Below, piece after piece: positions 3,672 through 52,184 of a DNA stretch of 64,000 bases. Position numbers and translations under genes: made by a program. Origin of the DNA: an uncultured Candidatus Saccharibacteria bacterium (GTDB taxonomy: Bacteria; Patescibacteriota; Doudnabacteria; UBA920); assembly GCA_964384035.1 (NCBI GenBank), contig CAYLIB010000001.1, positions 48,532 to 112,531 of the forward strand, read 5' to 3'. Numbering within the stretch: the stretch's first letter is position 1; every line of letters starts with the position of its first letter. The notes beneath the pieces were generated by a model that ran no database searches, had not been told where the DNA came from, and worked only from the letters and a program-made list of their open reading frames with translations.

Positions 3672-4754
3672 AGTATTAAATATTTAAACAAGTAGTTACA
3701 AACAACGATGACAAATTTAACCGACTTGAATTAGAATAGCCTTTATTCCAAAATTCTTCTATAGAAGAAAAAATGTTTAACATAAATTTTTAACCTTAAT
3801 CATTTAATACCCACCTACCCGTAAACCTACTAATAACATTAACGGGTTATTTGAGGACTTGAAGATCCCCCTACCCTTGCTACTCAAAATATAGCTCTCG
3901 TCTTCAAAAACGAAATTCTAATACAAGAAGTTTCTCACATAATCTATACTACTCAGTTCCTAAAAATAAGAAGACATGTGGAAATATTTTAAAAAAATCA
4001 GACTCTACTAGGATTAAAAATCCTTTTTTAAATTCCAGACCCCTTACAAATAATCTCTGTTTGTATTTCCAAATAACCGAGATCCTAAGATTGCTTTTCG
4101 AATATACTTATAGTTTCTGCACATCGAAAAAAAAGTACATCGGTAATAAGTCTGATAAACAAATCAACAAATCAAAATATAACAGGAAGTTCGTTTAGCT
4201 ACACAAACCAGCACTATGAACTTTAGTCAGCGAGATTCATCGGATAATCCCTAACCATCTTGAACAATATTGGGAAATAAACTTTTCAAAAGTAAACAAT
4301 CAAAGTGAAATAGATTTAAATCACAAATTGAGTTTCACCTATGATTCCACACCCGTACCAACTGAAATACCACATTTACACCCGAAAGAAATCTAAAAAA
4401 AACAAAAGTACCCCACCGATGTTAATTTGGCTTTAAATTTAGTTAACACAAGTGTTATTTTGGACCACGGATTCGCAAAAAACAAAAAGTAAACTCACAC
4501 TGCAAATGGTGTTCGGCGGAAAAAATCAGCAGAAGAAAGTACTAGGAATATTACTACCCTCATATTCTTTCTGTACTATGAAATACGGTTAAAATTTCTA
4601 AAAAACTTACCACCACCCAGGTCTCCCCTTCCTAAATCTGCGGCCTGCTTAAGGTCTCGATTTTAATCCTTATGAACATCACCAACCTGACAAAATGTAA
4701 TGTTATTTTAAAAAAAATGAATCCAAATAATGGATTCTAAAAAACAACATAAAA

Positions 4755-10831: not shown

Positions 10832-10995
10832 CCCCATTGCTCGGGGTTTTTAGTTGCCAAAACACGCGCTTTTAGGTATATTTAGAAAGTTATAAATAAA
10901 TTCCCTCGAATTTACTCATCCTTCTTATATTGAATTTATGCGATTCAAAATATAGCTTTTTCTCGATCCGGGTCCCCCGAGCCGAAAAAAATCAA

Positions 10996-11083
10996 CGGAA
11001 AGGGTGAGTAATGAGAGAAGCCTTAAAGGAATCAGGGTCTCCCTGTCCCTACTTAAGTGGAAAACCATATTTTCCCTCTCATA
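10996..11083 (+). promoter_or_regulatory. conserved leader motif 'cggaaagggtgagtaatgagag' with hairpin (atgagaggg.../...ccctctcat) upstream of infB
   Basis: The same 22-nt motif and hairpin recur at 21590-21635. Here the hairpin is interrupted by a 45-nt insert. Confidence 0.45.
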
Positions 11084-15216: not shown

Positions 15217-15353
15217 ATTCACGAGCGAAGCAATGTGAATGCGCCAACCAAAAGTAGCTCGCTACTTTTGAAAGGGACAACAAGGTAAACGAAGTGTAGT
15301 CTTTATGGAGCGAAAGCGTAATAAAGACGTAACGCAGTGAGCCTTGGTTGGCC
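15217..15353 (+). repeat. R2 tRNA-cluster spacer repeat, unit 1
   Basis: ATTCAC-gagcgaagcaat-GTGAAT hairpin, then a second hairpin (caaaagtagc/gctacttttg), then the core 'gaaagggacaacaagg..aacgaagtgtagtctttatggagcgaaagcgtaataaagacgtaacg.agtgagccttggttggcc'. Confidence 0.7.
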
Positions 15354-15358
15354 TGTGG

Positions 15359-15433
15359 TGGTGCCTCGGCTCAGAATCGAACTGAGTACGCAAGCCTCTT
15401 CAGGGCTTCGCTCTACCAATGAGCTACCGAGGC
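15359..15433 (-). tRNA. tRNA-Phe(GAA)
   Basis: Acceptor GCCTCGG/CCGAGGC, anticodon loop CTGAAGA, CCA encoded. Confidence 0.8.
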
Positions 15434-15473
15434 GCTTCTATATTCACGAGCGCAGCAATGTGAACCATTTATC

Positions 15474-15549
15474 TGGTGGACGCTACAGGACTCGAACCTG
15501 TGACATCTTCGGTGTAAACGAAGCGCTCTACCAACTGAGCTAAGCGTCC
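15474..15549 (-). tRNA. tRNA-Val(UAC)
   Basis: Acceptor GGACGCT/AGCGTCC, anticodon loop TTTACAC, CCA encoded. A truncated R2 hairpin at 15442-15472 sits just 3' of it. Confidence 0.8.
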
Positions 15550-15575
15550 ATACATATATTATAACTGAGACTATG

Positions 15576-15716
15576 ATTCACGAGCGCAGCAATGTGAATG
15601 TTTTTTGGGTCCCCGGCCACTCGTGGCTGGGGAGAGGGACAACAAGGTGAACGTAGTGTAAGGTTTATGAAGCGTAAGCGCAATAAAGACGTAACGTAGT
15701 GAAGAAAACTAGACCT
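15576..15716 (+). repeat. R2 spacer repeat, unit 2 (divergent)
   Basis: Same ATTCAC...GTGAAT hairpin. The second hairpin is replaced by ccccggccactcgtggctgggg. The core 'gagagggacaacaaggtgaacgtagtgta...aataaagacgtaacgtagtga' is retained. Confidence 0.65.
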
Positions 15717-15718
15717 TT

Positions 15719-15855
15719 ATTCACGAGCGAAGCAATGTGAATGCGCTAACCAAATGTAACTGGTTACATTTGAAAGGGACAACAAGGAGAACGAAGTGTA
15801 GTCTTTATGGAGCGAAAGCGTAATAAAGACGTAACGTAGTGAGCCTTGATTGGCC
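15719..15855 (+). repeat. R2 spacer repeat, unit 3
   Basis: About 90% identical to unit 1. Its second hairpin (caaatgtaac/gttacatttg) has compensatory changes relative to unit 1. Confidence 0.7.
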
Positions 15856-15857
15856 CG

Positions 15858-15942
15858 TGGTGCCCGAGGAGGGACTCGAACCCTCAAGCCTTACGGCATA
15901 CGCACCTCAAGCGTACGCGTATACCAATTCCGCCACCCGGGC
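15858..15942 (-). tRNA. tRNA-Leu(GAG), type II
   Basis: Acceptor GCCCGGG/CTCGGGC, anticodon loop TTGAGGT, long variable arm, CCA encoded. Confidence 0.75.
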
Positions 15943-17441: not shown

Positions 17442-17545
17442 GTCGACTCATAAGAGTCGCATCCCCTAGCAGCAACTGCTGCGAGACAGGGGAGGCTCCA
17501 TAAGGGCTTTGCCCGTTGGAGGGGACGACGCTAGTCCCTATAGTA
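17442..17545 (+). repeat. 5' module of three hairpins immediately upstream of tRNA-Cys; homologous to 25062-25143
   Basis: gcagcaactgctgc, gggctttgccc and gggacgacgctagtccc correspond to gcggcaaagccgc, ggctctgcc and ggggcgacgcaagcccc at 25062-25143. The changes are compensatory. Both copies end '...cttagta(g)'. Confidence 0.6.
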
Positions 17546-17620
17546 GGTGCGTTGGCGAAGTGGTAACGCTGCGGTCTGCAAAACCGCCATGCGTGGGTTC
17601 GAATCCCACACGCACCTCCA
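17546..17620 (+). tRNA. tRNA-Cys(GCA)
   Basis: Acceptor GGTGCGT/ACGCACC, anticodon loop CTGCAAA, discriminator U73, CCA encoded. Confidence 0.8.
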
Positions 17621-17640
17621 TGAGACCCCTGAGATTCTCA

Positions 17641-17805
17641 GGGCTCCCAAATTACTTGCTTACCTATGAGTTTGTTTGAAAAAACCCGAAGAGGGATTTT
17701 TCAAAAAACAAAGAAAGAAGCAATTTGGGACAAGGAGAACTTGACGGAGAGTGCAGCTGTTAGTTCTGCACCGAACTGACAGCGGAGCTCGTAGACAAGT
17801 TGGAC
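17641..17805 (+). repeat. R1 structured repeat, copy B, between tRNA-Cys and tRNA-Leu
   Basis: 'gggctcccaaattacttg', a GAAGA-loop hairpin (gaaaaaaccc/gggatttttc), 'aaagaagcaatttggga' pairing back to the 5' end, 'ggagagtgcag', an AGTT/AACT hairpin, then 'cggagctcg...ggac'. Confidence 0.65.
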
Positions 17806-17807
17806 GC

Positions 17808-17894
17808 GCCCAGGTGGCGGAACTGGTATACGCTACGGACTTAAAATCCGTCGCCCGCAAGGGATTGAGGGTTCGATTCCCTCCCTGGGCACCA
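17808..17894 (+). tRNA. tRNA-Leu(UAA), type II
   Basis: Acceptor GCCCAGG/CCTGGGC, anticodon loop CTTAAAA, long variable arm, T-arm GAGGGTTCGATTCCCTC, CCA encoded. Confidence 0.8.
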
Positions 17895-18283
17895 CTAAAA
17901 ACACGTTGATAAAGTTAGCGTGTTTTTTAGTTAGTACATTTTCAAAACAAGGGAATCGAACCTTCGCGTTAGCGAAAACTTTAGGGAGTGAACCCATGCT
18001 CTGCTGGGTGAACACATCTGGGCTGGTTCACCAGATCCAGATTTAATAGCCAACCCTCCCTGGGCACCACAAAAAACATGCTAATTAAGTTAGCGTGTTT
18101 TTTTGTTTAAATAAGAATAGGCAAATTGGGGAATCGAACCTGAGCGAAGCGAAATCTTTAGGGAGTTTGAATCCAGCTTTGCTGGTTCAAACGTTCGGCG
18201 CAAGCCTGCGAAGTCGCCGATATATAGCCATCCCTCCCTGGGCACCACAAAAAACACGTTCTATATATGAACGTGTTTTTTAG
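17895..18283 (+). repeat. tandem array of two extra copies of the tRNA-Leu 3' end, each followed by a terminator hairpin and a ~160-nt paralogous spacer
   Basis: 'ccctccctgggcacca' occurs at 17879-17894 inside the tRNA and again at 18054-18069 and 18232-18247. Terminator hairpins at 17897-17927, 18071-18105 and 18249-18281 differ in their loops. The spacers begin 'gggaatcgaacc', an inverted T-arm. Confidence 0.65.
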
Positions 18284-18527
18284 TAATATGATGTACCCGG
18301 AGAAAACCTTAATTACATCATCATAAAACAGGTGAAAAATGGTTTAACCGGCGGAACCCAAAACGCGCGTCTTGAATTCCATATAAAACCTTCTTCCCGA
18401 ATACAAGGTGGAAGTTGGGACCATGGTAAGTCAGGCAAAGGGACAACCCAGCCAATCGATTAGCAGACAACCCAAACAAGGTCGTTTTTTATTTGGCAAC
18501 AACTGCATATACGTTTAAACTAAACTT

Positions 18528-21421: not shown

Positions 21422-21557
21422 ACTCAAACATACCGTAAAAGTGACGGTATTTTTTATTGCCTAATCCCCCATAAAAAAGTACAATACATAGGTACTTTTA
21501 ATAATTTATTAGCGGTTTTTTCTTCTCTTTTTGCCTTCCAAAGATGTAGCATTTCTA

Positions 21558-21635
21558 GGATCCGGCTTTGCCGGGCATAGAAATAACAGCGGAAAGGGTG
21601 AGTAATGAGAGGGAAAACCATGTTTTCCCTCTCAT
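21558..21635 (+). promoter_or_regulatory. upstream motif 'ggatccggctttgccgg', then leader motif 'cggaaagggtgagtaatgagag' with a perfect 13-bp hairpin ending at the start codon
   Basis: atgagagggaaaa-ccatg-ttttccctctcat abuts ATG 21636. The 22-nt motif is shared with the infB leader. 'tccggctttgccgg' also occurs at 31373-31386. Confidence 0.45.
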
Positions 21636-22592: not shown

Positions 22593-25061
22593 ATGGCAAA
22601 CAAAGAAATCGAAAAAACCGACGAATTTAATATCGGTACAGTCAAACCAAGAGATATTCAAACAGAAATGCAAGAATCCTACTTGGACTATGCAATGAGT
22701 GTTATCGTTAACCGCGCTCTTCCAGACATTAGAGATGGTCTAAAACCAGTACATAGACGTATATTTTATGCCATGCACGAATTAGGACTTAGACATAACG
22801 CTAAATTCCGTAAATCAGCCGCTGTTGTTGGTGAAGTGCTCGGTAAATACCACCCTCACGGTGACCAAGCAGTATACCAATCCATGGTCCACATGGCCCA
22901 AGACTTCGCTATGCGATATCCTCTCATAGACGGCCAAGGAAACTTTGGCTCTATGGATGGCGACGAAGCCGCTGCCATGCGTTACACGGAAGCCAGAATG
23001 GATTCACTCGCAGAAGAACTTCTTACAGATCTAGACAAAGAAACCGTTGAATGGCGAGATAACTACGACGCAACAAGGAAAGAGCCTTCTGTGCTCCCAG
23101 CAAAGCTTCCAAACCTTTTACTAAATGGAACTCTTGGCATCGCCGTTGGTATGGCCACAGACATACCCCCACATAACATAAGCGAAGTTATAGACGGCAT
23201 CACAATGCTTATAGAAGACCCAGAGGTAACCGTTGAAGATCTCACTACAGTAGTTAAAGGTCCAGATTTTCCTACCGGAGGTACAATCTACGATATCGCA
23301 AGCATAAGAAACGCATACGCTACAGGAAAAGGAAGCATAGTAATGCGAGGTAAAACCGAAATTGTAGAAACCAAAAGTGGCATGTTCCAAATTATCATCA
23401 ACGAAATTCCTTATCGTGTGAACAAAGCCACAATGCTCGAGAGAATTGCCGACCTGGTTCGTGACAAAAAAATTGAAGGTATAAAAGATGTACGTGATGA
23501 ATCCGACAAAGACGGCGTTAGGGTCGTAATCGACTTAAAAAAAGAAAGTTTACCAAACAAAATACTCAATCAGTTATTCTCTTACACCCAGCTCCAAGAA
23601 ACCTTTCACATGAACATGCTGGCGCTTATAGACGGACTAGAACCAAGGGTTCTAAACCTCAAAAGCATTCTGGAAGAATACATAAAACACAGACAAGTAG
23701 TTGTAAGAAGAAGAACGGAGTTCGATCTCAAAAAAGCAAAAGAACGAGCACACATTTTAGAGGGTTTAACTATTGCGCTAGACCACATAGACGAAGTCAT
23801 AAACACCATAAGAAAGAGCGCAACAAAAGAAGAGGCCCACGCTAACTTAATGAAAAAGTTTAAGTTAAGCACTCTTCAAGCTCAAGCTATCCTAGATATG
23901 AGACTGCAAACACTCGCAGGTCTCGAAAGAAAGAAAATAGACGATGAGTTAAAAGAGAAAAGAAAACTTATCGCAGAACTCGAAGATATACTTAGCAAAC
24001 CAAAGCGTATTCTCGCTATTATAAAAACCGAAATTGCTGAACTCAAAGAAAAATATGGCGACGAGAGACGTACTCAAATAGTTAAGTCCCCTGTTGGCAC
24101 ATTCTCTGTAGAAGACCTTATTCCAGAAAACGAAAGTCTAATATCTTTCACTAAGAGTGGGTACATAAAACGTCTAGCTCCAGAAACCTACAAAGCCCAA
24201 GTTAGAGGAGGCAAAGGTGTCATAGGTACCGGACTAAAAGACGAAGACGTTGTTGAGAAGTTAATTTCCGCAAATACCCACGACGAAATCCTCTTCTTCA
24301 CCAACAAAGGGAGAGTATTCCTAACTAAAGTTTATGAACTACCAGAAGGAAGCAGAACTAGTAAAGGACAAGCTCTGGTTAACTTCCTAGAAATGGGTAC
24401 AGGCGAAACCGCTACAGCAATTCTGACCTTAAGCAAAAACGACTCAGTAAAATTCCTCGTAATGGCCACTAAGGGCGGGGTTATAAAAAAGGTTGCAAGA
24501 GAAGAATTCGCTAAAGTTAGAAGATCTGGACTTATCGCCATAAATCTAAAAGACGGAGATGAATTAAAATGGGTAGAAGGCAGCAGTGGAACAGACGAGA
24601 TTATCCTAGTATCAGAAAACGGAATGGCAATTCGTTTCAACGAGAAAGACGTAAGAGCAATGGGTAGGGTATCCACCGGCGTAGGAGGTATGAGACTTAA
24701 AAAAGGTGACTGCTTAATTTCAATGGATGTTATTGCCAAAACAGCAGACCAAAAAAATCTTGAAGTTTTGGTAATTACAGAAAAAGGTCTCGGCAAAAAG
24801 AGTCCAATCTCCGACTACAAGACCCAAAAAAGAGCCGGCGGTGGAGTAAAGACCCTAAAAATTACTCCAAAGACAGGTAAAGCCGTTGCAATGAATATCG
24901 TTAACAACAAAGATGAAAACGACCTCGTAATCATTTCCAAGCAAGGCCAAACCCTAAGAACACCCCTAAACTCCATCTCCACCCTAGGCCGAGCCACCCA
25001 AGGCGTAAGAGTAATGAGATTAGACGATGGAGACTCAGTGGCTAGCGTAACGGTCATTTAA
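22593..25061 (+). CDS. gyrA: DNA gyrase subunit A
   Basis: Sequence motifs '[11 protein letters not shown]', '[11 protein letters not shown]' and 'DGQGNFGS' plus a C-terminal beta-pinwheel. 822 aa. gyrB is not adjacent. Confidence 0.95.
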
Positions 25062-25191
25062 TAGCGGCAAAGCCGCGAGAAGGGAGGCTCGAATCTGGCT
25101 CTGCCAGTTCGAGGGGCGACGCAAGCCCCCTTAGTAGCAAGTCATGAGATTAGACGATGGCGATAGCGTAGCAAGCGTTACTGTCATTTAG
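25062..25191 (+). repeat. 5' module (homolog of 17442-17545) followed by a second, synonymously recoded copy of the last 15 gyrA codons
   Basis: 25144-25191 'atgagattagacgatggcgatagcgtagcaagcgttactgtcatttag' encodes [15 protein letters not shown]. This is identical in peptide to gyrA 25014-25061. Nine of the 16 codons (including the stop) are synonymously changed. Confidence 0.7.
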
Positions 25192-25380
25192 GGGTCCTAA
25201 ATTACTTGCTTACATATTAGTTTTAGAACAAAGCGCGAAGAGCGCTTTTTTCTAAAACATAGAAAGAAGCAATTTGGGAAGAGGAGAACTTTATGGAGAC
25301 TGCAGTAATTAGTTTTATATCAAACTAATTACGGAGGTCGAAATAAAGTGGGACGAGTAAGTGTGACTGTTATCTAAAAC
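25191..25380 (+). repeat. R1 structured repeat, copy C
   Basis: 'ggggtcctaaattacttg', a GAAG-loop hairpin (agcgc/gcgct), 'aaagaagcaatttggga', 'ggagactgcag', an AGTTT/AAACT hairpin (gtaattagttt/aaactaattac), then 'cggaggtcg...ggac'. Confidence 0.65.
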
Positions 25381-25414
25381 CCTAACCTTAATTAAATATA
25401 AAAATAAGCGACTC

Positions 25415-25783
25415 CTAAACGGGGTCGCTTTCGTTTTTTACCAGTTCAAGAATTCTCCTCTCAATTGTTATAAGATTAACGTTTAAAGGAAAACAAAATT
25501 GAGGAATTTCGGGATATTTCATTTGAGATTCACGCCAACTCTTAAGTGATATAGTAACACCAAAAGATTTCTCATGCTTATCGGTCCAAATCGTAAAATC
25601 TTTACCCTCACCATCGGCAACCGAATGGGGCCTGTGTCTCTTGTATTTGGTTATATACCCTTTCACCTTAAGTTCTTCTAATAATTTCTCGACCTTAGAC
25701 TCCAAATCTCTACCGAATTCGGAATATCTTTTAGATTTTCTTTCACGATAAGCCTGAAAATCTCGTTTATTCTTCCAACCCAT
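25415..25783 (-). CDS. hypothetical protein
   Basis: 122-aa basic ORF. Confidence 0.35.
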   Translation of the reverse strand: MGWKNKRDFQAYRERKSKRYSEFGRDLESKVEKLLEELKVKGYITKYKRHRPHSVADGEGKDFTIWTDKHEKSFGVTISLKSWRESQMKYPEIPQFCFPLNVNLITIERRILELVKNESDPV

Positions 25784-25910
25784 ATTCCCTCCTTTACCCC
25801 CCTATTTTAGATAAAATAACCCCACTTATCCACTCTTTGCAAAAACATTTAGCCTTTGCTATCTTTGCTTTTGGTACAATCCATATATTGTCCAAAAAAG
25901 GAGACGACAA

Positions 25911-26813
25911 ATGAAAAAGAAGGAAAGACTAAGCACATTAAGTTGGACTGAAGGTCAGAGGCTTTTACTCGAATGTGGTATTAATCCTCATCTGTTGAAT
26001 CCTGACTTTCTTTTGCGCTACCGTATACAAACGGAAGAATCAGATAGCATCTATGACGCCAAAACAACAATTGAAGTCGCCAAAGAGTTCAATACATATC
26101 TGAAAATTAATGGTTTTTCCACCCTAGACGAGACCGAAACAAAAGAACTCTATGTGGGCCTTTTGCTTTCCGATATCGGCAAAACCGGTCCGGAGTTTCA
26201 TGATGGAATGAAAGATGGAGAAAAAGTTATGCAAATAAGGGATTATTTAAAAGTTTATTCCATCAAAAATATTCCAAACTACGATTCGCTTTCGCTACAG
26301 GATTGCATTAGATCTTACTTTACTGATCCCGAAGAACTAATCTCTAGATTCACTGCATATGGCGAAGACCCAAACGAAACCATGAGATTCTTTACAAACC
26401 AACACGCACACCGAAGCTATAAAATTGCGTGCAATAGCGGAATTCCGGAAGATACTATTCCAGCCATAGCCTTACACCATATATTTGAGGATCAAAACCC
26501 AGGAGATCTAGTAGCTGAAGATGGCCATTTTACACGAAGCTGCGGTTGTAACACTGAATTTCACCGACCCGAGCTTCTGGTTGTAATATTGGATAAGCTA
26601 AACGCTGTTCAAACCAGACTAACCCCTGGTGAGAAAGCCCCAAGCTGGCAAGAAGCCGCTCTCTTAGTTGAGTTTCAAATGGAAGAAAGAATCGAAAAAC
26701 TAACTCACCCTGAACTCAAAAAACTTCTAAAATCCATGTGGTACGAGGTCACACAAACACTTCATAGAATCGCGGCCTTCAAATCTCCCAGAGCCTTCAG
26801 TACGAAAGCATAA
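25911..26813 (+). CDS. hypothetical protein, HD-domain-like with a degenerate metal-binding motif
   Basis: 'YVGLLLSDIGKTG' resembles the HD motif 'LLHDIGK' with His replaced by Ser. Downstream 'HAHRSY' and 'IALHHIFED' follow. Confidence 0.4.
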   Translation: MKKKERLSTLSWTEGQRLLLECGINPHLLNPDFLLRYRIQTEESDSIYDAKTTIEVAKEFNTYLKINGFSTLDETETKELYVGLLLSDIGKTGPEFHDGMKDGEKVMQIRDYLKVYSIKNIPNYDSLSLQDCIRSYFTDPEELISRFTAYGEDPNETMRFFTNQHAHRSYKIACNSGIPEDTIPAIALHHIFEDQNPGDLVAEDGHFTRSCGCNTEFHRPELLVVILDKLNAVQTRLTPGEKAPSWQEAALLVEFQMEERIEKLTHPELKKLLKSMWYEVTQTLHRIAAFKSPRAFSTKA

Positions 26814-26916
26814 AAACCGAGCAACAAAGTTGCTCATTTTATTTACCTTCTTGACTTTTATTCAAAAATTCAGTAAAATGCACGATTCGACTTAAAATAA
26901 TTTCTTTGGGGGGAAC

Positions 26917-28248
26917 ATGACAGGAACAAATCTGAACTCGCTTCTCAGCGAGTTTAAAAGACTAGCAGGAAACAACTTCCAACTTTTTACAAACCGATAT
27001 TTCCAAGCGAGGTCGGGAGGAGAATTCGTTCTCCCTTACGAAGCCATTCTTGAACACTTTGGCCTGAACCCCAAACTAGTTTCTGGCCAAACCTACATAA
27101 TCATATGCGATGCTTTCCGTGACTTAGACGACGAGAAGACTATCATTCTCATGAAAGCACTAATTGAATGCGAAGCCGAGCTCGCTGTCGTGGTCACAAA
27201 TCTAAACAGCGCGCTCGACCGGGCGTGCGGAGTTAAAGGATTACTAAGACTACTGGATCTGGGTTTTGTACCAGTAGGAGTAGGTACTGACGGCTCCAAC
27301 GAAGCGGTACCTTTCCATTTCGAAAGGACAGTACCTTTTGCAGTGCCCGCATACCAAGTAAACCCAGACGGTCAAGGCCTAATAATTAACACACTCACTT
27401 CCGCTAAGCCAAAAAGTGTAAGTGTATTACTAATCTCCTCACTTCGTGATATGGACATCATATTAGAAGAAAACAACTCCCTCTGCCGCGATCGGATAAA
27501 CCGAATTACCTTAATGGCGGGGGTAAAAATCGCAAATGGTAAACCAGAGTTGCTAAATGGCTTACTTCAAGCAGACATAAAGACTAACGGCGTAGGTGGT
27601 GCATCAAACTGCAATTTTGATACAGCTGCTAGCACAAGACTGTATCGGAACGCTCAAAAGCTCGAAATTCCTACTACAACTCTCACAAGAGTAACCGCGG
27701 GTGAAGTTAAGTTACCGTTTAGTATCTTCGATATTTGGGCTACTACAGGCCACCCAGCCGCCTCACGCCTCAAAGACGGTCAATCCCTTAGTTTCAATAA
27801 CTTACGCCTGGCTTGCCTTGAAGGCGAAGGCGGATCGCACCGAGTAGCCCTTGAACTCGCACTAGACCGAGACATAAACTGGTTCATCTATAAGGCATTT
27901 TTCAGAAACGCTCCAAAAGAAATACAGGAGCAAATTCTGAACCTGCCGTTACATGAATCTGTCTGGCCCATAGCCGCCGACTACGGCGAGCTTATGCCCT
28001 ACGACCCACTGGCACTACTCGCAAGCATAGAAGGCAACTCGCTGTTTAACTATCACTCCACAGTGGTAGGCGGAGCTGTTCACAAGGTGGTAGGTATAGA
28101 CGCCCAAAACACCGGCGCCCTAGACCCACTTTCCTTAAGAATGCTTCTGTTCATAGCCACAACAGAAGTACTCATAAGAACATCCAACCACGCCAAACGG
28201 GAGTTCCTGACCATCAAACGCGAACGCCTAGAAGCAAAAACTACCTAA
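26917..28248 (+). CDS. hypothetical protein (443 aa) with anomalously high GC
   Basis: Uninterrupted ORF. Sampled 60-nt blocks run 58-62% GC against about 35-40% in flanking genes. 'ICDAFRDLDDEKT' weakly resembles an aspartate-cluster motif of nucleoside hydrolases. Confidence 0.45.
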   Translation: MTGTNLNSLLSEFKRLAGNNFQLFTNRYFQARSGGEFVLPYEAILEHFGLNPKLVSGQTYIIICDAFRDLDDEKTIILMKALIECEAELAVVVTNLNSALDRACGVKGLLRLLDLGFVPVGVGTDGSNEAVPFHFERTVPFAVPAYQVNPDGQGLIINTLTSAKPKSVSVLLISSLRDMDIILEENNSLCRDRINRITLMAGVKIANGKPELLNGLLQADIKTNGVGGASNCNFDTAASTRLYRNAQKLEIPTTTLTRVTAGEVKLPFSIFDIWATTGHPAASRLKDGQSLSFNNLRLACLEGEGGSHRVALELALDRDINWFIYKAFFRNAPKEIQEQILNLPLHESVWPIAADYGELMPYDPLALLASIEGNSLFNYHSTVVGGAVHKVVGIDAQNTGALDPLSLRMLLFIATTEVLIRTSNHAKREFLTIKRERLEAKTT

Positions 28249-28309
28249 CTCCAAGACCCGAAGCGGTCTTTTTTATTTCAAAAAGACACCTTTTTGGGTG
28301 TCTTTTTAT

Positions 28310-28445
28310 ATTCACGAACCAAGCAATGTGAATCTATAACGGGGCCCCCGGGCACTCGTGACTGGGGAGAGGGACAACACGGGGCCACCAAATAACTCGA
28401 CCACACATTGTTTAAAAAAGATTCGAAGAGTCTTTTTTAACATAG
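28310..28445 (+). repeat. partial R2 unit (ATTCAC...GTGAAT hairpin + 'ggggagagggacaaca') followed by a degenerate R1 5' part with GAAGA-loop hairpin
   Basis: 'attcacgaaccaagcaatgtgaat...ccccgggcactcgtgactggggagagggacaacac', then 'ccaccaaataactcg...aaaaaagattcgaagagtctttttt'. Two terminator hairpins lie at 28254-28311. Confidence 0.5.
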
Positions 28446-28588
28446 CGGTGAGATATTTGGTATCAGGTTAATCCCTCACCGGATTCACTCAGGGGAGGGT
28501 GCTAATCTCGGGAAAAGCGGGAGCAAGGCGAACATGAGTTTGGACGGGATTACTTCCCGTACAGACTCGCGTGAACCTTGCTCACGCT

Positions 28589-28665
28589 TGGTGGGCGCAC
28601 TAGGACTCGAACCTAGGACCCTCGAGGTATAAGCTCGATGCTCTAACCAACTGAGCTATGCGCCC
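28589..28665 (-). tRNA. tRNA-Ile(UAU)
   Basis: Acceptor GGGCGCA/TGCGCCC, D-arm AGCTCAGTTGGTTAGAGC, anticodon stem TCGAG/CTCGA with loop CTTATAC, CCA encoded. Confidence 0.6.
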
Positions 28666-28955: not shown

Positions 28956-30227
28956 ATGGCAGGAATCTTTGGAATATTTAACCATAACGAAGCAAGTAAC
29001 TTTGCATACCTTGGATGTTATGCCATGCAACAACGTGGTACCAAACAATCAGGTATTGTAAGTTCCGATGAAAACAAACTTTACTCTTTTCATAGTCAGG
29101 GCCTCATAAAAAAATCAGTAAGCGAAGAAACAATCAGACGATTAAAAGGTAAACACGCAATTGCCCAGATAGATCACAAAAGTGGATTAGCACTTCCTTA
29201 CAAATTCAAACACGCCAGCGTAGGAGAAATTGCAGTATGTTTAGACTCGAACCAAAATCAACCTGTTTCATTGTTTAGTCTCTTAGGTAACAACGAACTT
29301 GAAAGTCTCATTCTTAGCAGTCTTCAATATCTAGACTTTAGCTCCGAAGAAACGCTTAGAATGAGTTTGAATGGTGTAAACAAAACGTTCATCGCACTTA
29401 ATAAGAACAAAATGCTAGTTTCGAGAGATCCTTGGGGAAATAGACCTCTAATTTTAGGAAAACTAGGCAAATCCATCTTGGTTAGCACTGAGTCAATATC
29501 CTTCGACCTGCTAGGGGCAGAAATAATACGAGAAGTAGAACCAGGAGAAGTAATTCTTATTACTGACACCTCATTTATCTCTCTTCTAAAAAGGCCTTCC
29601 GAGAACCTTCTTAAGTGCTCTTTTGAACACGTTTATTTCTCAAGACCCGACTCCATTATTTTTGACCAGAGCGTAAACAAAAGCCGTCACAAATGGGGAA
29701 AAATACTAGCAAAGGAACACCCTGTCGAAAAGGATTGTATCACATTAGGAGTACCTGACTCTGGGGTACCAGTAGCAGTAGGATTCTCCCAAGGATCAAA
29801 CACAAACTACTTAAATGGAATAATTCGCAACCGATACGTAGGAAAAATGGAAAGCAATGCTACGTTAAGCCCAAGTAGAGTCCGTACGAAGTTCAACGTA
29901 GACAGATCGTTAATTGAGGGACAAAAAGTTGCTTTACTAGACGATTCATTACTTGGAGGAGAAGTGGCTAGACTTCTAGTTCAGATGCTAAAAGACGCTG
30001 GAGCAATTGAAGTCCACGTTAGGATAGCGTGTCCACCCATTCTTTCCACTTGCCAATTTGGACAAGGCATCTCCAATCAAGGTGTTCTTATCGCCAAGAC
30101 CCATTCATTCGGAGAGATACTCAAACACCTCAAAGCAGATTCACTAGGATTCCTAAGTATGGAAAGTTTTCTCTCTGTGTTTCACTCCAAACAAAATTTT
30201 TGTACCGAATGTATGCGTCGAAGCTAG
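28956..30227 (+). CDS. amidophosphoribosyltransferase (PurF)-like protein with the N-terminal nucleophile Cys replaced by Ala
   Basis: 'MAGIFGIF...LGCYAMQQRGTKQSGIV' aligns with the PurF 'MCGIVGI...HRGQDAAGI' N-terminus. 'EHVYFSRPDS' and the PRTase motif 'VALLDDSLLGGEV' are present, as is a C-terminal CxxC. Confidence 0.7.
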   Translation: MAGIFGIFNHNEASNFAYLGCYAMQQRGTKQSGIVSSDENKLYSFHSQGLIKKSVSEETIRRLKGKHAIAQIDHKSGLALPYKFKHASVGEIAVCLDSNQNQPVSLFSLLGNNELESLILSSLQYLDFSSEETLRMSLNGVNKTFIALNKNKMLVSRDPWGNRPLILGKLGKSILVSTESISFDLLGAEIIREVEPGEVILITDTSFISLLKRPSENLLKCSFEHVYFSRPDSIIFDQSVNKSRHKWGKILAKEHPVEKDCITLGVPDSGVPVAVGFSQGSNTNYLNGIIRNRYVGKMESNATLSPSRVRTKFNVDRSLIEGQKVALLDDSLLGGEVARLLVQMLKDAGAIEVHVRIACPPILSTCQFGQGISNQGVLIAKTHSFGEILKHLKADSLGFLSMESFLSVFHSKQNFCTECMRRS

Positions 30228-32177: not shown

Positions 32178-32204
32178 AAAAAAACGCCCAAGGCGTTTTT
32201 TTTG
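32176..32204 (+). terminator. rho-independent terminator after yebC
   Basis: aaaaaaaaacgcccaaggcgtttttttt. Confidence 0.6.
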
Positions 32205-32282
32205 TCTTAATCGTCATTCTCTATTCGTCATTCTTCATTCGTTATGCTTTATTCTTAATTCGTTATTCGCTATTCTTCATTC

Positions 32283-32747
32283 ATGATTATATTAGGACTG
32301 GATCCAGGTACTGCCACAACAGGTTTTGCCATAATCCAAAGAGAAAAAAACTTTCCTCTGAAAATTCTGGAACTTGGAGTTATTTCCACTAGTCCCAAAA
32401 AAACCGATGCTGAAAGACTCTGTGAATTGGCGGAAGATATTGAAGCCCTTCTACTAAAATATAAACCGGACAAAGTAGGAATAGAAAAGCTATATTTTGA
32501 AACCAACCAAAAAACCGCCATGACAGTAAGCCAAGCCCGTGGTGTCTTGCTTTACTTGCTTACAAAATACAAAATACCAACTCTCGAACTCACTCCACTT
32601 CAAGTAAAAAGTCGCACTACCGGTTTCGGCAAAGCAGACAAAAAACAAATGCAAACAGCTGTTAAATTACTATTTAAACTAAAAACAATCCCCAAACCCG
32701 ACGACGCCGCCGACGCCCTAGCTATCGCTTTTTGTGTAAGTTTGTAA
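32283..32747 (+). CDS. ruvC: crossover junction endodeoxyribonuclease RuvC
   Basis: 'MIILGLDPGTATTGFAIIQ' N-terminus and 'DAADALAIAF' near the C-terminus. Confidence 0.85.
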   Translation: MIILGLDPGTATTGFAIIQREKNFPLKILELGVISTSPKKTDAERLCELAEDIEALLLKYKPDKVGIEKLYFETNQKTAMTVSQARGVLLYLLTKYKIPTLELTPLQVKSRTTGFGKADKKQMQTAVKLLFKLKTIPKPDDAADALAIAFCVSL

Positions 32748-41068: not shown

Positions 41069-41302
41069 TTAAACTACAGGATCTACTTCTGGTTTTGCAA
41101 AAGGATTACACTTAATAATTCGTTTCACCGACATTAGCATACCTATCACAAAACCCTTCTTCACCACAGCTTGTTTAGCATATTCACTACAAGAAGGGTA
41201 AAATCTACAAAAACCATAAGGATATCTGGCTCTAAAGATACCATGATCCGGCGACAGCGTCTTCTGATATATATTTATTAATAAAATAATAATCGTCTTC
41301 AT
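41069..41302 (-). CDS. yidD: membrane protein insertion efficiency factor YidD
   Basis: 'YQKTLSPDHG...CRFYPSCSEYAKQAV...KRIIKCNPF'. Confidence 0.8.
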   Translation of the reverse strand: MKTIIILLINIYQKTLSPDHGIFRARYPYGFCRFYPSCSEYAKQAVVKKGFVIGMLMSVKRIIKCNPFAKPEVDPVV

Positions 41303-41333
41303 TCTCTATTCGTTATTCTTCATTCACCACTCT

Positions 41334-41672
41334 TCACTTTATTAACTTTACAAACTTTAAAAACTTTATAAACTCACTAGCTATAGCTTTGTCATATATC
41401 TCCATTGCTTTTGGTTTTACTGTAAAAATATAGTCACCATACGCAAATCTCTCCAAATTATCCCTTATAACTACCCTGACTATCCTTTTCATTCTGTTTC
41501 TCACAACAGCCTTCTTGGATACCTTGGTAGAGACAACGACTGTAAATCTTTTAGCTGAACTTTCTGTTTTTTTAAATTTAGCCATAAAAAAAGGACTAAA
41601 AAAAGCCCGCCCCCTAGCAAAGGTAGCTTGAACTTCCCTTGTTTTTTGGAGACGATGCTTTTCAGGTAGCAT
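41334..41672 (-). CDS. rnpA: ribonuclease P protein component
   Basis: 'LPEKHRLQKTREVQATFARGR' N-terminus plus the conserved position after rpmH. Confidence 0.8.
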   Translation of the reverse strand: MLPEKHRLQKTREVQATFARGRAFFSPFFMAKFKKTESSAKRFTVVVSTKVSKKAVVRNRMKRIVRVVIRDNLERFAYGDYIFTVKPKAMEIYDKAIASEFIKFLKFVKLIK

Positions 41673-45031: not shown

Positions 45032-46156
45032 ATGTTTCAAAAGTTAAAAAGCAAACAAATAATTAAAGTTTCCAAAATTGTTGTAGCAGCACTTGTCCTT
45101 GGTATATTTGGTCTCCAACCCGCACCCGTAAACGCTGCTTCACTAACAACTGTAAAAGATACCCTTACCAGAATCGAACAAGCCCAAACCGCAGACCATA
45201 CAATAACATTTACACTCCCAGGTGGAGCCTCAAGCTTCGTAGCTGGCGATAAAATGTCCATTGACTTCCCAGCAAACTTCGTAACCTCAACGGGCTGGGC
45301 AACCTCAGATTTCACCTTTAACGACGGTACTTCAAGAACCATAACCACAGTAGGCACCAACTCTACTCCTACCTGTACGGCTGGTACTAATAATGTTTCT
45401 GTAGAAATTACAACAGCAAGCGACCTATTTGTAATTACCGCCTGTTCTACCTTCACAGCAAACTCATCAGCCAACATTACATTCACCATTCAAGGTACTG
45501 GCGCTAACGGAACCCTCACGAACCCTTCTTCTCCTGAGACTTCCGTAGTGGCAATAGTAGGTGATGATAAAGGAAACGGGTTCGGTTCAGACGACGACAC
45601 CGCTTCCCTAGCTATCCCAATCATCGCAGACGATACAGTTACAATTACAGCTACCGTGGACCCAACTATTACCTTCTCAATATCAGATACAGCTATTTCA
45701 TTTGGAACCCTGTCTTCGGGAGCTGCGCGGTACGCTACTGGAGACGGAACCAGTACATCTACTGACCCCTCTGGTGGTGCTCACAACCTACAAATCTCTA
45801 CCAATGCCACCAGCGGTTACATCGTTACTTACAAAGGTGCAACACTAACCAGCGGAGCTAACACTATCGATGTTCCAGGTACATTCATAAACAACGACGC
45901 CAACGGTACTCCAGGACAAGAAGAATTCGCTCTTTCTGTAAACAGACAAACCGGTACCGGTACGGTTGCCGCCAACTACCAATACACCGACCCAGACTGG
46001 GACTTCGACGCCAACACTACCACTACCATTTACACCCAAACCGCAGCAACCAACACTGAAACTCTAGAAATTCACTACCTCGCTAATATAGCTGGCGCTA
46101 CTCAAGCTGGCACCTACACCACAGACGTTACTTACATAGCTACTGGAACGTTCTAA
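45032..46156 (+). CDS. secreted beta-rich surface protein, paralog 1
   Basis: Signal peptide with AxA site (PVNA/AS). T/S/G/N-rich. C-terminus '...GTYTTDVTYIATGTF'. The last 565 nt are identical to 47946-48510. Confidence 0.55.
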   Translation: MFQKLKSKQIIKVSKIVVAALVLGIFGLQPAPVNAASLTTVKDTLTRIEQAQTADHTITFTLPGGASSFVAGDKMSIDFPANFVTSTGWATSDFTFNDGTSRTITTVGTNSTPTCTAGTNNVSVEITTASDLFVITACSTFTANSSANITFTIQGTGANGTLTNPSSPETSVVAIVGDDKGNGFGSDDDTASLAIPIIADDTVTITATVDPTITFSISDTAISFGTLSSGAARYATGDGTSTSTDPSGGAHNLQISTNATSGYIVTYKGATLTSGANTIDVPGTFINNDANGTPGQEEFALSVNRQTGTGTVAANYQYTDPDWDFDANTTTTIYTQTAATNTETLEIHYLANIAGATQAGTYTTDVTYIATGTF

Positions 46157-46164
46157 ATACATTC

Positions 46165-46190
46165 AAAACCGCCCATAAGGGCGGTTTTAT
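46165..46190 (+). terminator. rho-independent terminator
   Basis: aaaaccgcccataagggcggttttatt. Confidence 0.55.
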
Positions 46191-46233
46191 TATTCCTCAT
46201 GTTATAATTCCCTTAGAATATTTTACTTAACCA

Positions 46234-47295
46234 ATGCCTAGCTCTAAATTCTTCGTTATTCGTATATTCTCTCTATTCGTTATTCTCTATTCGTTACTCT
46301 TCATTCCACGCGAAGCTAGCGCCCTTACCATATCTCCTCCCAGATTAGAGACCTCGGCAGACCCAGGTCAAACAATAGAACAAGAAGTAAAAATCATCAA
46401 TGAAGAAAGATCCTCACGAACACTCTATATTGTTCCTCAAAACTTTGAAGCCAAAGACGAAAGCGGAGAACCAAATTACGTCGAAGGCACAGAAAACCTA
46501 GCCGGTTGGATAAAAGTAGCAAAATCAGTAAATCTCGGACCAGGTGAAGAAAAATTTGTAAAATTTTCTATTTCGGTTCCACCCACTGCTGAACCTGGTG
46601 GATATTTTACAGCTCTATTCTTCCAAAGTGAACCCCCTAGCTTTGAACAAGGTGCTGGTATTGGTATAGGTAGCCAGTTAGGAAGTTTAATTCTTTTAAA
46701 AGTTAATGGTGCTATAGGAGAGCAAGCGGGTATACTCGAATTTGCTACTAAAAACAAAGATCGCACTTTCTTAAATCTACCTATAGAATTCTACTACCGT
46801 TTCCAAAACACAGGAGACACGTGGGTTAAACCTTTAGGTGAAGTCTTTATAACAAACACATTCGGAAAAAGAGTAAAACTCCTTACAGCGAACAGGCAAA
46901 AAGGAAATGTGCTACCCAAAAGCATTCGCAAATTCGAAACTGCATGGTTAAATAGCGGTGGAAATATAAAGGAAGACCCAAAAGGTGAAATTGAATACCC
47001 AAAACTAGAAGATTTCTGGGCAAATGTAAAATATCAATATAGCAATTTCGCTTTCGGACTCTACACTGCCAAACTCCATTTAGCTTACGGCACAAATCCT
47101 GTGCAGGTAGGAGAAACAACTTTCAAATTTATCGTATTTCCTTGGCAGCTCACATTAGTAAGTACCATTCTCGCCATAATTATCTTAATTATTCTGAGAA
47201 TACTTATTAAAAAATACAATCAAAGTATTATTAGAAAAGCCCAAAATCAAATTCAAAGTAAAGACAACCCTACTTCCAAACGAGGTAAAAAATAA
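46234..47295 (+). CDS. CscA/DUF916-DUF3324-like cell-surface protein with C-terminal TM anchor
   Basis: Signal peptide, 'ALTISPPRLETSADPGQTIEQEVKIIN', C-terminal TM with K/R tail (WQLTLVSTILAIIILIILRILIKKYN). Confidence 0.45.
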   Translation: MPSSKFFVIRIFSLFVILYSLLFIPREASALTISPPRLETSADPGQTIEQEVKIINEERSSRTLYIVPQNFEAKDESGEPNYVEGTENLAGWIKVAKSVNLGPGEEKFVKFSISVPPTAEPGGYFTALFFQSEPPSFEQGAGIGIGSQLGSLILLKVNGAIGEQAGILEFATKNKDRTFLNLPIEFYYRFQNTGDTWVKPLGEVFITNTFGKRVKLLTANRQKGNVLPKSIRKFETAWLNSGGNIKEDPKGEIEYPKLEDFWANVKYQYSNFAFGLYTAKLHLAYGTNPVQVGETTFKFIVFPWQLTLVSTILAIIILIILRILIKKYNQSIIRKAQNQIQSKDNPTSKRGKK

Positions 47296-47390
47296 AATAT
47301 AAAAAACACCAAATAGTTCTTTGGTGTTTTTTAAAAATTAAAAAATAATTTTATGTTATACTTTTTCTATAAAACAACTTTATAAATTCC

Positions 47391-48509
47391 ATGTTAAAGC
47401 TTCTAAACAAAAATCAAAAAATAACAAAGTTAGTTATCACTGCATTAATCCTCAGCGTGTTTGGTCTCCAACCTTCACCCGTAAACGCTGCTTCACTAAC
47501 AACTGTAAAAGACACCCTTACCAGAATCGAACAAGCCCAAACCGCAGACCATACAGTACAATGGACATTACCCGGCGGCGCATCTAGTTTCGTTGCTGGA
47601 GATAAGGCAAGAGTAGATTTCCCGGCAAACTTTGTTACTAGTACAGAATCGGGTTGGGTAGCCGGAGACTTCACGTACAACGATGGTACCTCAAGAACTA
47701 TTGTAGCAGTGGGAGCATCACCGTCATGTTCTGCAGGTGCCAACAATATTACTGTCCAAATAGACTCTGCTAATGACCAATTTATTATCACAGCCTGCGC
47801 TTCCTTTACCGCTAACTCCTCAGCTAATGTTTCATTTACTATAGACGGAACCACAACAGACGGAACCCTTACAAATCCTTCTTCCCCAGAAACATCCGTG
47901 GTAGCTATCGTCGGTGACGATCAGGGCGACGGCTTCGGAAGCAATGACGACACCGCTTCCCTAGCTATCCCAATCATCGCAGACGATACAGTTACAATTA
48001 CAGCTACCGTGGACCCAACTATTACCTTCTCAATATCAGATACAGCTATTTCATTTGGAACCCTGTCTTCGGGAGCTGCGCGGTACGCTACTGGAGACGG
48101 AACCAGTACATCTACTGACCCCTCTGGTGGTGCTCACAACCTACAAATCTCTACCAATGCCACCAGCGGTTACATCGTTACTTACAAAGGTGCAACACTA
48201 ACCAGCGGAGCTAACACTATCGATGTTCCAGGTACATTCATAAACAACGACGCCAACGGTACTCCAGGACAAGAAGAATTCGCTCTTTCTGTAAACAGAC
48301 AAACCGGTACCGGTACGGTTGCCGCCAACTACCAATACACCGACCCAGACTGGGACTTCGACGCCAACACTACCACTACCATTTACACCCAAACCGCAGC
48401 AACCAACACTGAAACTCTAGAAATTCACTACCTCGCTAATATAGCTGGCGCTACTCAAGCTGGCACCTACACCACAGACGTTACTTACATAGCTACTGGA
48501 ACGTTCTAA
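47391..48509 (+). CDS. secreted beta-rich surface protein, paralog 2
   Basis: N-terminal half is about 60% identical to paralog 1. The C-terminal 188 aa are identical. Confidence 0.55.
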   Translation: MLKLLNKNQKITKLVITALILSVFGLQPSPVNAASLTTVKDTLTRIEQAQTADHTVQWTLPGGASSFVAGDKARVDFPANFVTSTESGWVAGDFTYNDGTSRTIVAVGASPSCSAGANNITVQIDSANDQFIITACASFTANSSANVSFTIDGTTTDGTLTNPSSPETSVVAIVGDDQGDGFGSNDDTASLAIPIIADDTVTITATVDPTITFSISDTAISFGTLSSGAARYATGDGTSTSTDPSGGAHNLQISTNATSGYIVTYKGATLTSGANTIDVPGTFINNDANGTPGQEEFALSVNRQTGTGTVAANYQYTDPDWDFDANTTTTIYTQTAATNTETLEIHYLANIAGATQAGTYTTDVTYIATGTF

Positions 48510-48578
48510 AAAAACTAAAAGAGCTTTTGCTTAATGCAAAAGCTCTTTTGTTTTATTTCTACGTGTTAAAATAATCTT

Positions 48579-49676: not shown

Positions 49677-49741
49677 AAAAATAACGCAATAAAAATCTCG
49701 GCACACCGAGATTTTTATTTTCATCATGTTAAAATGAATTC

Positions 49742-51891: not shown

Positions 51892-52184
51892 CAATAAAAC
51901 CCCTTAATTAAGGGGTTTTATTATAAACAAAATCATTTATCCTATATTTGACTTTTAACAAAATCTATGCTATTATACTTTTAGTTGAATTTGTTAAGTT
52001 AAGTTATCTTAAGTTAACAAAAGCCACTAAAGTCGAAACAAAAAATAAAAATTAAATAATCTGTTTTAAATAAGCCGCTTTTGTTCCAAAATTAGAACAA
52101 AGTCTAAGGCTCAAGCCGATTTATCGCAAAGATAAAACCTTTTTTGCGAAAATTGTCTTATTTAAGACAAGAAACAAAAATAAA

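Follow-up and report, generated by a model that had tools for sequence, protein, structure and literature searches.

An accessory islet at the gyrA/tRNA-Ile(UAU) junction of a Doudnabacteria-like genome, with a predicted distant XopQ-family enzyme and serial synonymous gyrA ends

The interval between gyrA and the tRNA-Ile(UAU) gene (positions 25,062 to 28,665) was analysed in a 64,000-nucleotide stretch of contig CAYLIB010000001.1 (forward strand, positions 48,532 to 112,531; assembly GCA_964384035.1) from an uncultured Candidatus Saccharibacteria bacterium. The whole stretch is referred to as the window, and coordinates are those of the window unless another record is named. The interval is probably, with a confidence of roughly 60%, a lineage-specific accessory islet that occupies a gyrA/tRNA-Ile(UAU) hotspot, was spread by gyrA-anchored recombination and carries three separately transcribed genes. 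In the initial annotation, made by reading the sequence, it had been described as a cargo region rich in guanine plus cytosine (GC), bounded by copies of a repeat, R1, and possibly delivered by an R1-associated element. The three open reading frames (ORFs), the tRNA gene on the right, and the gyrA 3' duplication and R1 copy (R1-C) on the left were all recovered at the following positions.

22593-25061, plus strand: gyrA, an ORF of 822 residues (Pfam DNA_topoisoIV and DNA_gyraseA_C matches on the L001 orthologue; about 40 relatives 70-79% identical)
25010-25061, plus strand: gyrA tail1, the copy in use, the last 51 nucleotides of gyrA
25062-25139, plus strand: R1-C, a 79-nucleotide structured repeat with three hairpins, between tail1 and tail2
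25140-25191, plus strand: gyrA tail2, a displaced copy, with 15 residues and stop identical to those of tail1
25191-25357, plus strand: X, a 167-nucleotide structured repeat, probably the 'R2' of the initial annotation
25351-25377, plus strand: gyrA tail3, a short copy (GRVSVTVI and stop) that lies at the 3' end of X and overlaps it
25415-25783, minus strand: ORF1, 122 residues, a small stand-alone protein with a predicted PD-(D/E)xK (restriction-endonuclease-like) fold
25911-26813, plus strand: ORF2, 300 residues, an orphan predicted to be all-helical
26917-28248, plus strand: ORF3, 443 residues, a predicted XopQ/HopQ1-type enzyme with nucleoside-hydrolase fold
28589-28665, minus strand: tRNA-Ile(UAU), a native gene and the right edge of the islet

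Non-coding stretches of 354 nucleotides (gyrA stop to ORF1) and 340 nucleotides (ORF3 end to tRNA-Ile) flank the three ORFs.

A GyrA scan fetched 80 loci, and about 40 genomes with 70-79% identical GyrA were compared. A metagenome-assembled genome, GCA_964434195.1, is a close relative of the window genome; its record is labelled 'Saccharibacteria', and many of the gyrA relatives are labelled Doudnabacteria. About 40 relatives share the gene order S1-MBL-gyrA-(variable segment)-(p103)-rsmI-yebC-ruvC, in which MBL denotes a metallo-beta-lactamase-fold gene. At a distance of 13-2185 nucleotides downstream of gyrA, tRNA-Ile(UAU) is found, in either orientation, in 34 of 37 Doudnabacteria-like relatives, and the distance is below 100 nucleotides in 12; the gap of 3,527 nucleotides in the window is the largest seen. 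Where the gap contains ORFs, they vary between relatives. By eye from translations, without family search, they include a recurrent ORF of about 196-214 residues, present in many relatives, whose N-terminal motif is HAD-like, together with small nucleotidyltransferase-like, large ATPase-like, membrane-protein and other ORFs. ORF1, ORF2 and ORF3 are not encoded within 10 kb at the loci of the approximately 40 relatives; they were found only in the window lineage and in one sister lineage (L006). One relative (L009) has the order gyrA-tRNA-Ile-purF-like-p103-rsmI, which is the window arrangement without ORF1-3. The gyrA/tRNA-Ile(UAU) junction, normally short, is a variable recombination hotspot of Doudnabacteria-like Patescibacteria. 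The UAU anticodon of this tRNA-Ile is unusual for bacteria, and the gene is conserved beside gyrA across the clade (L007-L059), in either orientation.

When the window was compared with the sister lineage, a tract of about 5 kb (23101-28200, from mid-gyrA to the end of ORF3) was 96-99% identical, against 83-92% for the flanks outside it. The proportion of synonymous sites that differ (pS) per 50-codon block was mostly 0-0.08 in mid-gyrA and in most of ORF3; gene-wide pS for MBL, purF-like and rsmI was 0.37-0.51 (synonymous divergence, dS, of 0.52-0.87). The near-identical tract indicates a recent recombinational exchange. The core of ORF2 (25951-26700) is only 67-79% identical to the L006 allele, with a saturated dS of about 2. 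Judged by these divergences, the two ORF2 alleles predate the split between the two genomes, and one of them must have recombined in from a third, unsampled lineage. Because the ratio of nonsynonymous to synonymous divergence (dN/dS) between these anciently diverged alleles is 0.06, ORF2 can be taken as a genuine gene under purifying selection. Evidently the islet moves and recombines among related lineages.

Acquisition of the three ORFs as horizontal cargo, which the initial annotation had proposed, is supported by synteny and phyletic pattern and not by composition (see below). It is supported because gyrA and tRNA-Ile are neighbours clade-wide, ORF1-3 are absent from about 40 relatives, and the islet is part of a tract that is 96-99% identical between two lineages whose difference elsewhere is 8-17%. 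It is further supported because, apart from their alleles in these lineages, neither ORF2 nor ORF3 has a relative closer than about 36% identity among the billions of proteins searched.

The left edge carries the 3' end of gyrA in three copies, in the order tail1, R1, tail2, X, tail3, the third of which (25351-25377) the initial annotation had not reported. At the tail3 position the sister lineage reads GRASVTVI and stop. The sequences 25010-25060 and 25140-25190 are 80% identical and have an identical 17-nucleotide block in common. All ten nucleotide differences between tail1 and tail2 are synonymous, one of them a TCA to AGC serine switch; in simulations, ten random substitutions kept the tail2 peptide in 0 of 200,000 trials (P<5e-6). 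Because the differences are solely synonymous, tail2 must have come from another functional gyrA allele; it diverged inside the functional gyrA of another lineage and not as a decaying local duplicate. An independent gyrA-tail duplicate is present in a Moranbacteria-like contig (L064, 11580-11711), where the last 10 codons and the stop occur again 99 nucleotides downstream with 7 differences, all synonymous (P=4e-5). Among 1,346 ORFs scanned, diverged synonymous-type tail copies were seen for gyrA alone. A tail duplicate in L018 was set aside; it is a perfect 590-nucleotide tandem repeat, has the appearance of an artefact and has no connection with the gyrA tail series.

The two repeats enclosed in the tail series are structured. 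R1-C resembles 17466-17545, upstream of tRNA-Cys (nhmmer E=2e-4; Smith-Waterman score 55). In the comparison of the two copies, changes are found on both sides of the stems, and the fold z-scores are modest (-1.65 and -2.24). In X, a long stem surrounds a terminator-like hairpin, and a second stem-loop comes after it; of the 55 pairs in the consensus fold of X, 15 show compensatory changes. Further copies of X are located at 17641-17807 (after tRNA-Cys), at 2958-3086 and, in L006, at 4289-4454. With nhmmer, no copy of R1 was found in other relatives and no copy of X in relatives beyond the sister lineage, and a scan of metagenomes for the X core pattern gave three unrelated, probably chance, matches only. 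R1, X and a third repeat, R3, match no known RNA family in Rfam, either at gathering thresholds or at relaxed E-values. R1 has neither terminal inverted repeats nor a transposase.

Repeat remnants and a hairpin lie between ORF3 and the tRNA gene at the right edge.

28310-28390, plus strand: partial R3 element, like 15576-15648
about 28411-28444, plus strand: partial X hairpin, like 2990-3022
28515-28588, minus strand: long hairpin with U-run that abuts the 3' end of tRNA-Ile

The partial R2 claimed for this side is thus present as the partial X hairpin, 28413-28437 being 96% identical to 2992-3016. The second bounding copy of R1 (R1-D), said to lie next to tRNA-Ile, could not be found: nhmmer gave none at the right edge, and alignment of either R1 copy with 28249-28588 on both strands gave best local scores of 15-18, with a shuffle mean of about 15. 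The islet has a copy of R1 on its left only. Folding of 28441-28588 gave z = -5.3 on the plus strand and -5.8 on the minus strand, and the hairpin at 28515-28588 is likely the terminator of tRNA-Ile and no R1 copy. No partial, att-like copy of tRNA-Ile is present in the islet. The window and the sister lineage do not agree in the stretch from ORF3 to the tRNA, with its R3 and X debris. R3 itself is a family of structured repeats of about 140 nucleotides at 15217-15862, which begins with the hairpin ATTCACGAGCG.AGCAATGTGAAT and is interleaved with four minus-strand tRNA genes.

The composition of the islet was examined by gene, by block and by tetranucleotide profile, in a window of 39.5% GC. 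ORF3 had been reported at 58-62% GC in 60-nucleotide blocks; its overall value is 46.9%, its 22 consecutive 60-nucleotide blocks range from 35 to 57% (mean 47%), and the maximum in 200-nucleotide windows is 51%. ORF2, described as intermediate, has 40.8% GC, on a par with gyrA (41.7%), and ORF1 has 36.6%. Among the 48 ORFs of the window (mean GC 0.384 +/- 0.041; mean GC at third codon positions, GC3, 0.332 +/- 0.061), ORF3 ranks highest in both GC and GC3 (0.455), at about +2 standard deviations (SD). The tetranucleotide profile of ORF3 shows a correlation of 0.525 with the window, where the average is 0.763 +/- 0.147. The sliding-window GC and tetranucleotide profiles thus bear out a deviation of ORF3, far smaller than claimed, and leave ORF1 and ORF2 unremarkable. 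The GC anomaly of ORF3 is genuine but modest, and composition by itself is insufficient to call the interval an island; the surface-protein region at 45-63 kb deviates more than ORF3. That region (45032-63047) is compositionally the most atypical part of the window, with three paralogous ORFs of about 370 residues (GC at second codon positions above 0.5) and a 3,479-residue ORF; its ORFs have no Pfam matches except for neighbouring WxL-interacting and dockerin-type surface domains. Contamination or a chimeric assembly behind the GC bump is unlikely: ORF1-ORF3 follow part of X in L001-L005, five records that come from other samples and were each assembled independently. The complete gyrA-to-ORF3 arrangement with all three tails is seen again in L001 and L006.

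All three ORFs had been called unannotatable. This holds for ORF2, and no longer for ORF3, which has a XopQ match, or for ORF1, which has a PD-(D/E)xK fold. Residues 61-384 of ORF3 match the NCBIfam profile NF041355 (XopQ) with E=4.3e-19, on profile positions 57-367 of 402. The solved structures matched by ORF3 are those of XopQ only (4p5f, 4kl0 and 7jlu; 1e-14 to 4e-13), and include no canonical nucleoside hydrolase. The motif DXXXDXDD is represented in ORF3 by D65-AFR-D69-L-D71-D72, which aligns with D-PNK-D-P-DD of XopQ, and at least 90% of 46 family members keep these positions. N231 of the NxxxD segment, D235 and D363 are invariant or nearly so in the family alignment, and Y362-D363 aligns with the 'YDPL' of XopQ. 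The HopQ1/XopQ family is distinguished by DXXXDXDD, where true nucleoside hydrolases have DXDXXXDD (PMC3608555). By its score, far short of the equivalog cutoff, ORF3 is a distant member of the XopQ family and no orthologue of XopQ. Assignment as a canonical IU-nucleoside hydrolase was rejected, as ORF3 gives no match to Pfam IU_nuc_hydro (PF01156) at E<=1 and has DXXXDXDD, not DXDXXXDD.

With the XopQ/HopQ1/RipB effectors and the HopQ1-like proteins of plants and algae, ORF3 shares the fold, the DXXXDXDD motif and the Asn and Tyr-Asp ribose/metal ligands. It differs in its low identity to them, about 25-30% across the domain, and in its 57-residue N-terminus, which is of another kind and, by eye, has no hydrophobic signal peptide. 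The hosts also differ, Patescibacteria here and plant pathogens in the case of the effectors, and the nearest relatives of ORF3 are uncharacterised proteins, some from diatoms and dinoflagellates. With the IU nucleoside hydrolases (PF01156; RihA/B/C, IU-NH) the superfamily fold is common, whereas the motif and the Pfam match are different.

An exhaustive search found 491 relatives of ORF3 among 1.84 billion representatives, the best 32-36% identical; a word-based search found one 98% identical cluster only. The relatives include diatom and dinoflagellate proteins and multi-domain proteins, and some of them match PF01156. The nearest single-domain relative, which is also the neighbour-joining sister (P0004, 34-36% identity), is encoded in a Doudnabacteria-like contig (L091, 666-1895) between S1 and MBL upstream of gyrA, with 51% GC against 42-44% in its flanks. 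GC-rich accessory genes of XopQ-like type seem to recur around gyrA in the clade. In unrelated bacteria (L090, L095, L097), ORF3 homologues lie beside NUDIX, beside NrtR, or within a cluster of ADP-ribosylglycohydrolase, NAPRTase, NadE (nicotinamide adenine dinucleotide, NAD, synthase) and NAD kinase. Because of the homology to XopQ and the NAD/ADP-ribose (ADPR) gene neighbourhoods of the homologues, ORF3 is predicted to hydrolyse, most likely, an NAD- or ADPR-derived riboside, with 2' cyclic ADP-ribose (2'cADPR) or a related ADPR or pyridine riboside as candidates, and not ordinary nucleosides. Ca2+ dependence is a further prediction for ORF3, drawn from homology to the nucleoside-hydrolase family. 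According to a 2026 preprint, XopQ converts the TIR immune signal 2'cADPR to ADPR by hydrolysis and is able to shut down type VI Thoeris (bioRxiv 10.64898/2026.06.15.732069).

A plain role in salvage was considered for ORF3, as a nucleoside hydrolase of an auxotrophic symbiont acting with its PurF-like neighbour and possibly with ORF2 as a nucleotidase. Patescibacteria in general rely on salvage, ORF3 has a nucleoside-hydrolase fold and a PurF-like phosphoribosyltransferase adjoins the islet. This role is nevertheless doubtful, given the missing IU_nuc_hydro match and the motif described above; in addition, the family neighbours are NAD/ADPR genes and not genes of purine or pyrimidine salvage, and no activity of HopQ1/XopQ was seen on standard nucleosides (PMC3608555; bioRxiv 10.64898/2026.06.15.732069).

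Fold comparisons point to a PD-(D/E)xK core (restriction-endonuclease-like, alpha-beta-beta-beta-alpha-beta) in ORF1, and a nuclease activity is predicted only. Among its fold matches are two homing endonucleases, I-Bth0305I and I-Ssp6803I, and a BFVD fold search yields only weak nuclease-fold matches. D57 and D62 are invariant, and the third motif, S79-L-K/R/Q81, resembles Cfr10I-type variants. The ORF1 family is sparse, and its members occur in unrelated contexts beside conserved genes; no target-gene duplicates were found around ORF1 homologues in other contigs.

Searches with ORF2 returned the protein itself, one 81% identical allele and nothing else. No family or structure match was obtained in Pfam, NCBIfam-type libraries or the PDB, or with hhalign, and the AlphaFold2 model (predicted local distance difference test score 42) is too poor for a structure search. 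The description of ORF2 as HD-like with His replaced by Ser goes back to a motif-level impression (S87-D88-I-G-K). As an HD domain it was rejected: Pfam gave no HD match for the whole protein, two sub-fragments or the second allele, nor did the PDB by phmmer or profile; hhalign against an HD_4 protein gave a probability of 0.2%, and the sole candidate for the catalytic His-Asp doublet reads S87-D88 in both alleles. An ADP-ribosylglycohydrolase-like assignment through a D-x6-E-F motif was likewise rejected (hhalign probability 0.1%). Neither PHROGs nor PADLOC assigns ORF1, ORF2 or ORF3 to a phage family or a defence system.

Consensus promoter-like and terminator-like sites were located around the three ORFs.

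25406-25430: terminator-like hairpin, ORF1
25832-25804: promoter-like site, ORF1
26819-26835: terminator-like hairpin, ORF2
26851-26879, plus strand: promoter-like site TTGACT-17-TAAAAT, ORF3, a match to consensus alone, downstream of the ORF2 terminator-like hairpin
28253-28270, plus strand: intrinsic terminator-like hairpin after ORF3

This arrangement suggests that ORF1, ORF2 and ORF3 may each form one transcription unit.

Beyond the tRNA lies a further gene that also varies among the relatives.

28956-30227, plus strand: PurF-like phosphoribosyltransferase (TIGR01134, 249 bits against a cutoff of 350), found among the relatives only in L009, at 30% identity

The purF-like gene makes up a second variable segment, which separates tRNA-Ile from the conserved block p103-rsmI-yebC-ruvC. 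In amidophosphoribosyltransferases the N-terminal nucleophile is Cys. The N-terminus of the PurF-like protein reads MAGIFGI, with Ala where the Cys nucleophile is expected, and the protein may be a glutaminase-dead phosphoribosyltransferase.

Serial 3'-end copies are also found at tRNA genes. At 17871-18284, the last 17 nucleotides of tRNA-Leu(UAA) and a terminator hairpin occur three times in series, as at gyrA, with two homologous inserts of about 115 nucleotides between the copies and with terminator stems that differ by compensatory changes. In L006 (4197-5186), tRNA-Cys is followed by X, by a 67-nucleotide partial tRNA-Cys with compensatory stem changes, by a terminator, by the gene of a 161-residue HNH endonuclease and by tRNA-Leu. 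The corresponding region of the window (17546-17894) contains neither the partial tRNA-Cys nor the HNH gene.

Recombination anchored in gyrA is the reading favoured for the arrival of the islet. Islet DNA would have been taken up from related lineages and integrated by homologous recombination in the conserved flank gyrA, and the opposite junction would at times have been illegitimate or displaced. Each displaced event would strand the gyrA 3' end of the recipient or of the donor, giving the series tail1, R1, tail2, X, tail3, in which R1 and X would be bystander intergenic repeats trapped between the tails and not the vehicle. Homology-facilitated illegitimate recombination occurs in natural transformation of Acinetobacter and pneumococcus. 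With a gyrA anchor and a displaced junction, such a process would give a new tail and then the old allelic tail, synonymously different from it, plus a tract of high identity that starts inside gyrA. Delivery of the cargo by an R1-defined mobile element with R1 at both boundaries, as proposed in the initial annotation, is by comparison extremely improbable: although R1 is a real repeat with one copy at the left edge and a second upstream of tRNA-Cys, the right edge is without it, R1-C is enclosed by tail1 and tail2 as an insert of the tail series and no cargo boundary, and R1 was not found in other relatives and has no element-like ends or transposase. Differential loss, in which the three genes would be ancestral at the site and lost in all other sampled lineages, is very unlikely. 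A XopQ-like paralogue in a related genome and the ORF2 alleles that predate the divergence of the two genomes would fit it; many independent losses would be required, as gyrA and tRNA-Ile are neighbours in 34 relatives that have none of the genes, ORF2 and ORF3 are wholly absent from the sampled relatives, and the recent-exchange tract speaks for mobility.

Two further mechanisms would account for the serial ends themselves. In the first, small non-autonomous elements of the cis-mobilizable element (CIME) type, with att sites that mimic their targets and an integrase acting in trans, would have accreted by site-specific integration at the 3' ends of gyrA, tRNA-Cys and tRNA-Leu. Diverged direct repeats of the target 3' end do surround short inserts at gyrA (three copies), at tRNA-Leu(UAA) (three copies) and at tRNA-Cys of L006 (the 67-nucleotide partial copy), the inserts of about 115 nucleotides at tRNA-Leu(UAA) are tandem and homologous, and the 17-nucleotide block identical in tail1 and tail2 could be a core site. 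As in tRNA-adjacent genomic islands and CIMEs, variable cargo lies beside a tRNA gene with serial imperfect direct repeats of a target 3' end. This mechanism appears unlikely all the same, since Pfam searches found no integrase or transposase among the scanned ORFs across the 64-kb window, ORF1-3 included, and X occurs at two targets, gyrA and tRNA-Cys, unlike the product of one att-specific integrase; the inserts measure merely 66-170 nucleotides, a partial tRNA-Ile is lacking, and the repeated gyrA end encloses R1 and X only and does not flank ORF1-3. In the other mechanism, ORF1 would cut the gyrA 3' end of islet-free relatives, repair would copy the cassette together with a resistant, synonymously recoded tail, and ORF2 and ORF3 would hitch-hike. 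Free-standing homing endonuclease cassettes yield hybrid genes with a displaced 3' end, as in Allomyces mitochondrial atp6 and in the intronless homing of T-even phages. Here too a replacement gyrA 3' end, with the displaced original downstream, lies near a small nuclease-fold gene, and an HNH gene adjoins the partial tRNA-Cys copy in L006. The homing-endonuclease fold matches of ORF1, the sparse distribution of its family next to conserved genes in unrelated contexts, the solely synonymous differences between the tail copies and the near-identical gyrA-to-ORF3 tract, as expected of co-conversion, would all be in keeping with homing. Unlike in known cassettes, ORF1 falls outside the recognised homing endonuclease families, is separated from the tails by X and is in the opposite orientation; its cleavage of gyrA is hypothetical, and homing is held to be rather unlikely.

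Several observations weigh against gyrA-anchored spread of an accessory islet as favoured here. One-sided recombination is inferred from scars alone, and to our knowledge homology-facilitated illegitimate recombination has never been demonstrated in Patescibacteria. The serial 3'-end copies at tRNA-Leu and, in L006, at tRNA-Cys could mean a dedicated insertion mechanism. Foreign origin is weakly backed by composition, ORF3 being about 2 SD above the mean and ORF1 and ORF2 ordinary. P0004 is GC-rich and lies about 4 kb away, across gyrA, in another Doudnabacteria-like genome; because of this position near gyrA in a related genome, the ORF3 gene family may be an old accessory of the clade instead of a recent import. 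The nearest outgroup contig (L091) stops within gyrA and so sets no time for the gain of the islet. As regards the gene products, ORF3, at 68.5 bits, is far short of the 500 bits set as equivalog cutoff for XopQ, the substrate assigned to it is a prediction, and the catalytic triad of ORF1 is not clear-cut (D62 invariant; third motif S79-x-K/R/Q).

Elsewhere in the window, intergenic arrays of ATTCNNN repeats with a 7-nucleotide period are present at four sites (32195-32293, 41290-41357, 46257-46317 and 49793-49856). On the minus strand at 309-2064, an N6/N4 DNA methylase gene (1261-2064) overlaps a 322-residue ORF (309-1277), and the two may be a restriction-modification pair. A 71-nucleotide sequence ending in ...GGAAAGGGTGAGTAATGAGAG occurs at 10947-11017, upstream of infB, and at 21541-21611, upstream of the MBL-fold gene, the two copies being 75% identical.

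As a genomic island the islet is genuine yet ordinary; what sets it apart is the predicted enzyme, a distant one of the XopQ family, and a recombination scar of uncommon clarity. It can be speculated, with little expectation that it holds, that the XopQ-type enzyme of the islet destroys 2'cADPR-like signals derived from TIR proteins, and so disarms Thoeris-type immunity of a bacterial host or tunes that of its own cell, with the islet spread by ORF1 as a homing nuclease that targets the gyrA 3' end and the recoded gyrA tails as its scars. ORF3 would extend the XopQ/HopQ1 hydrolase family into Patescibacteria, and is a concrete candidate for asking whether ultra-small symbionts manipulate NAD-derived signals or only salvage NAD metabolites. 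We know of no cultured members of the group concerned, and of very few recognisable mobile elements in it. The serial gyrA tails, with synonymous differences only, record an exchange between functional alleles with unusual clarity, and together with the 5-kb tract they provide direct evidence of homologous gene flow and of cargo turnover at a hotspot.

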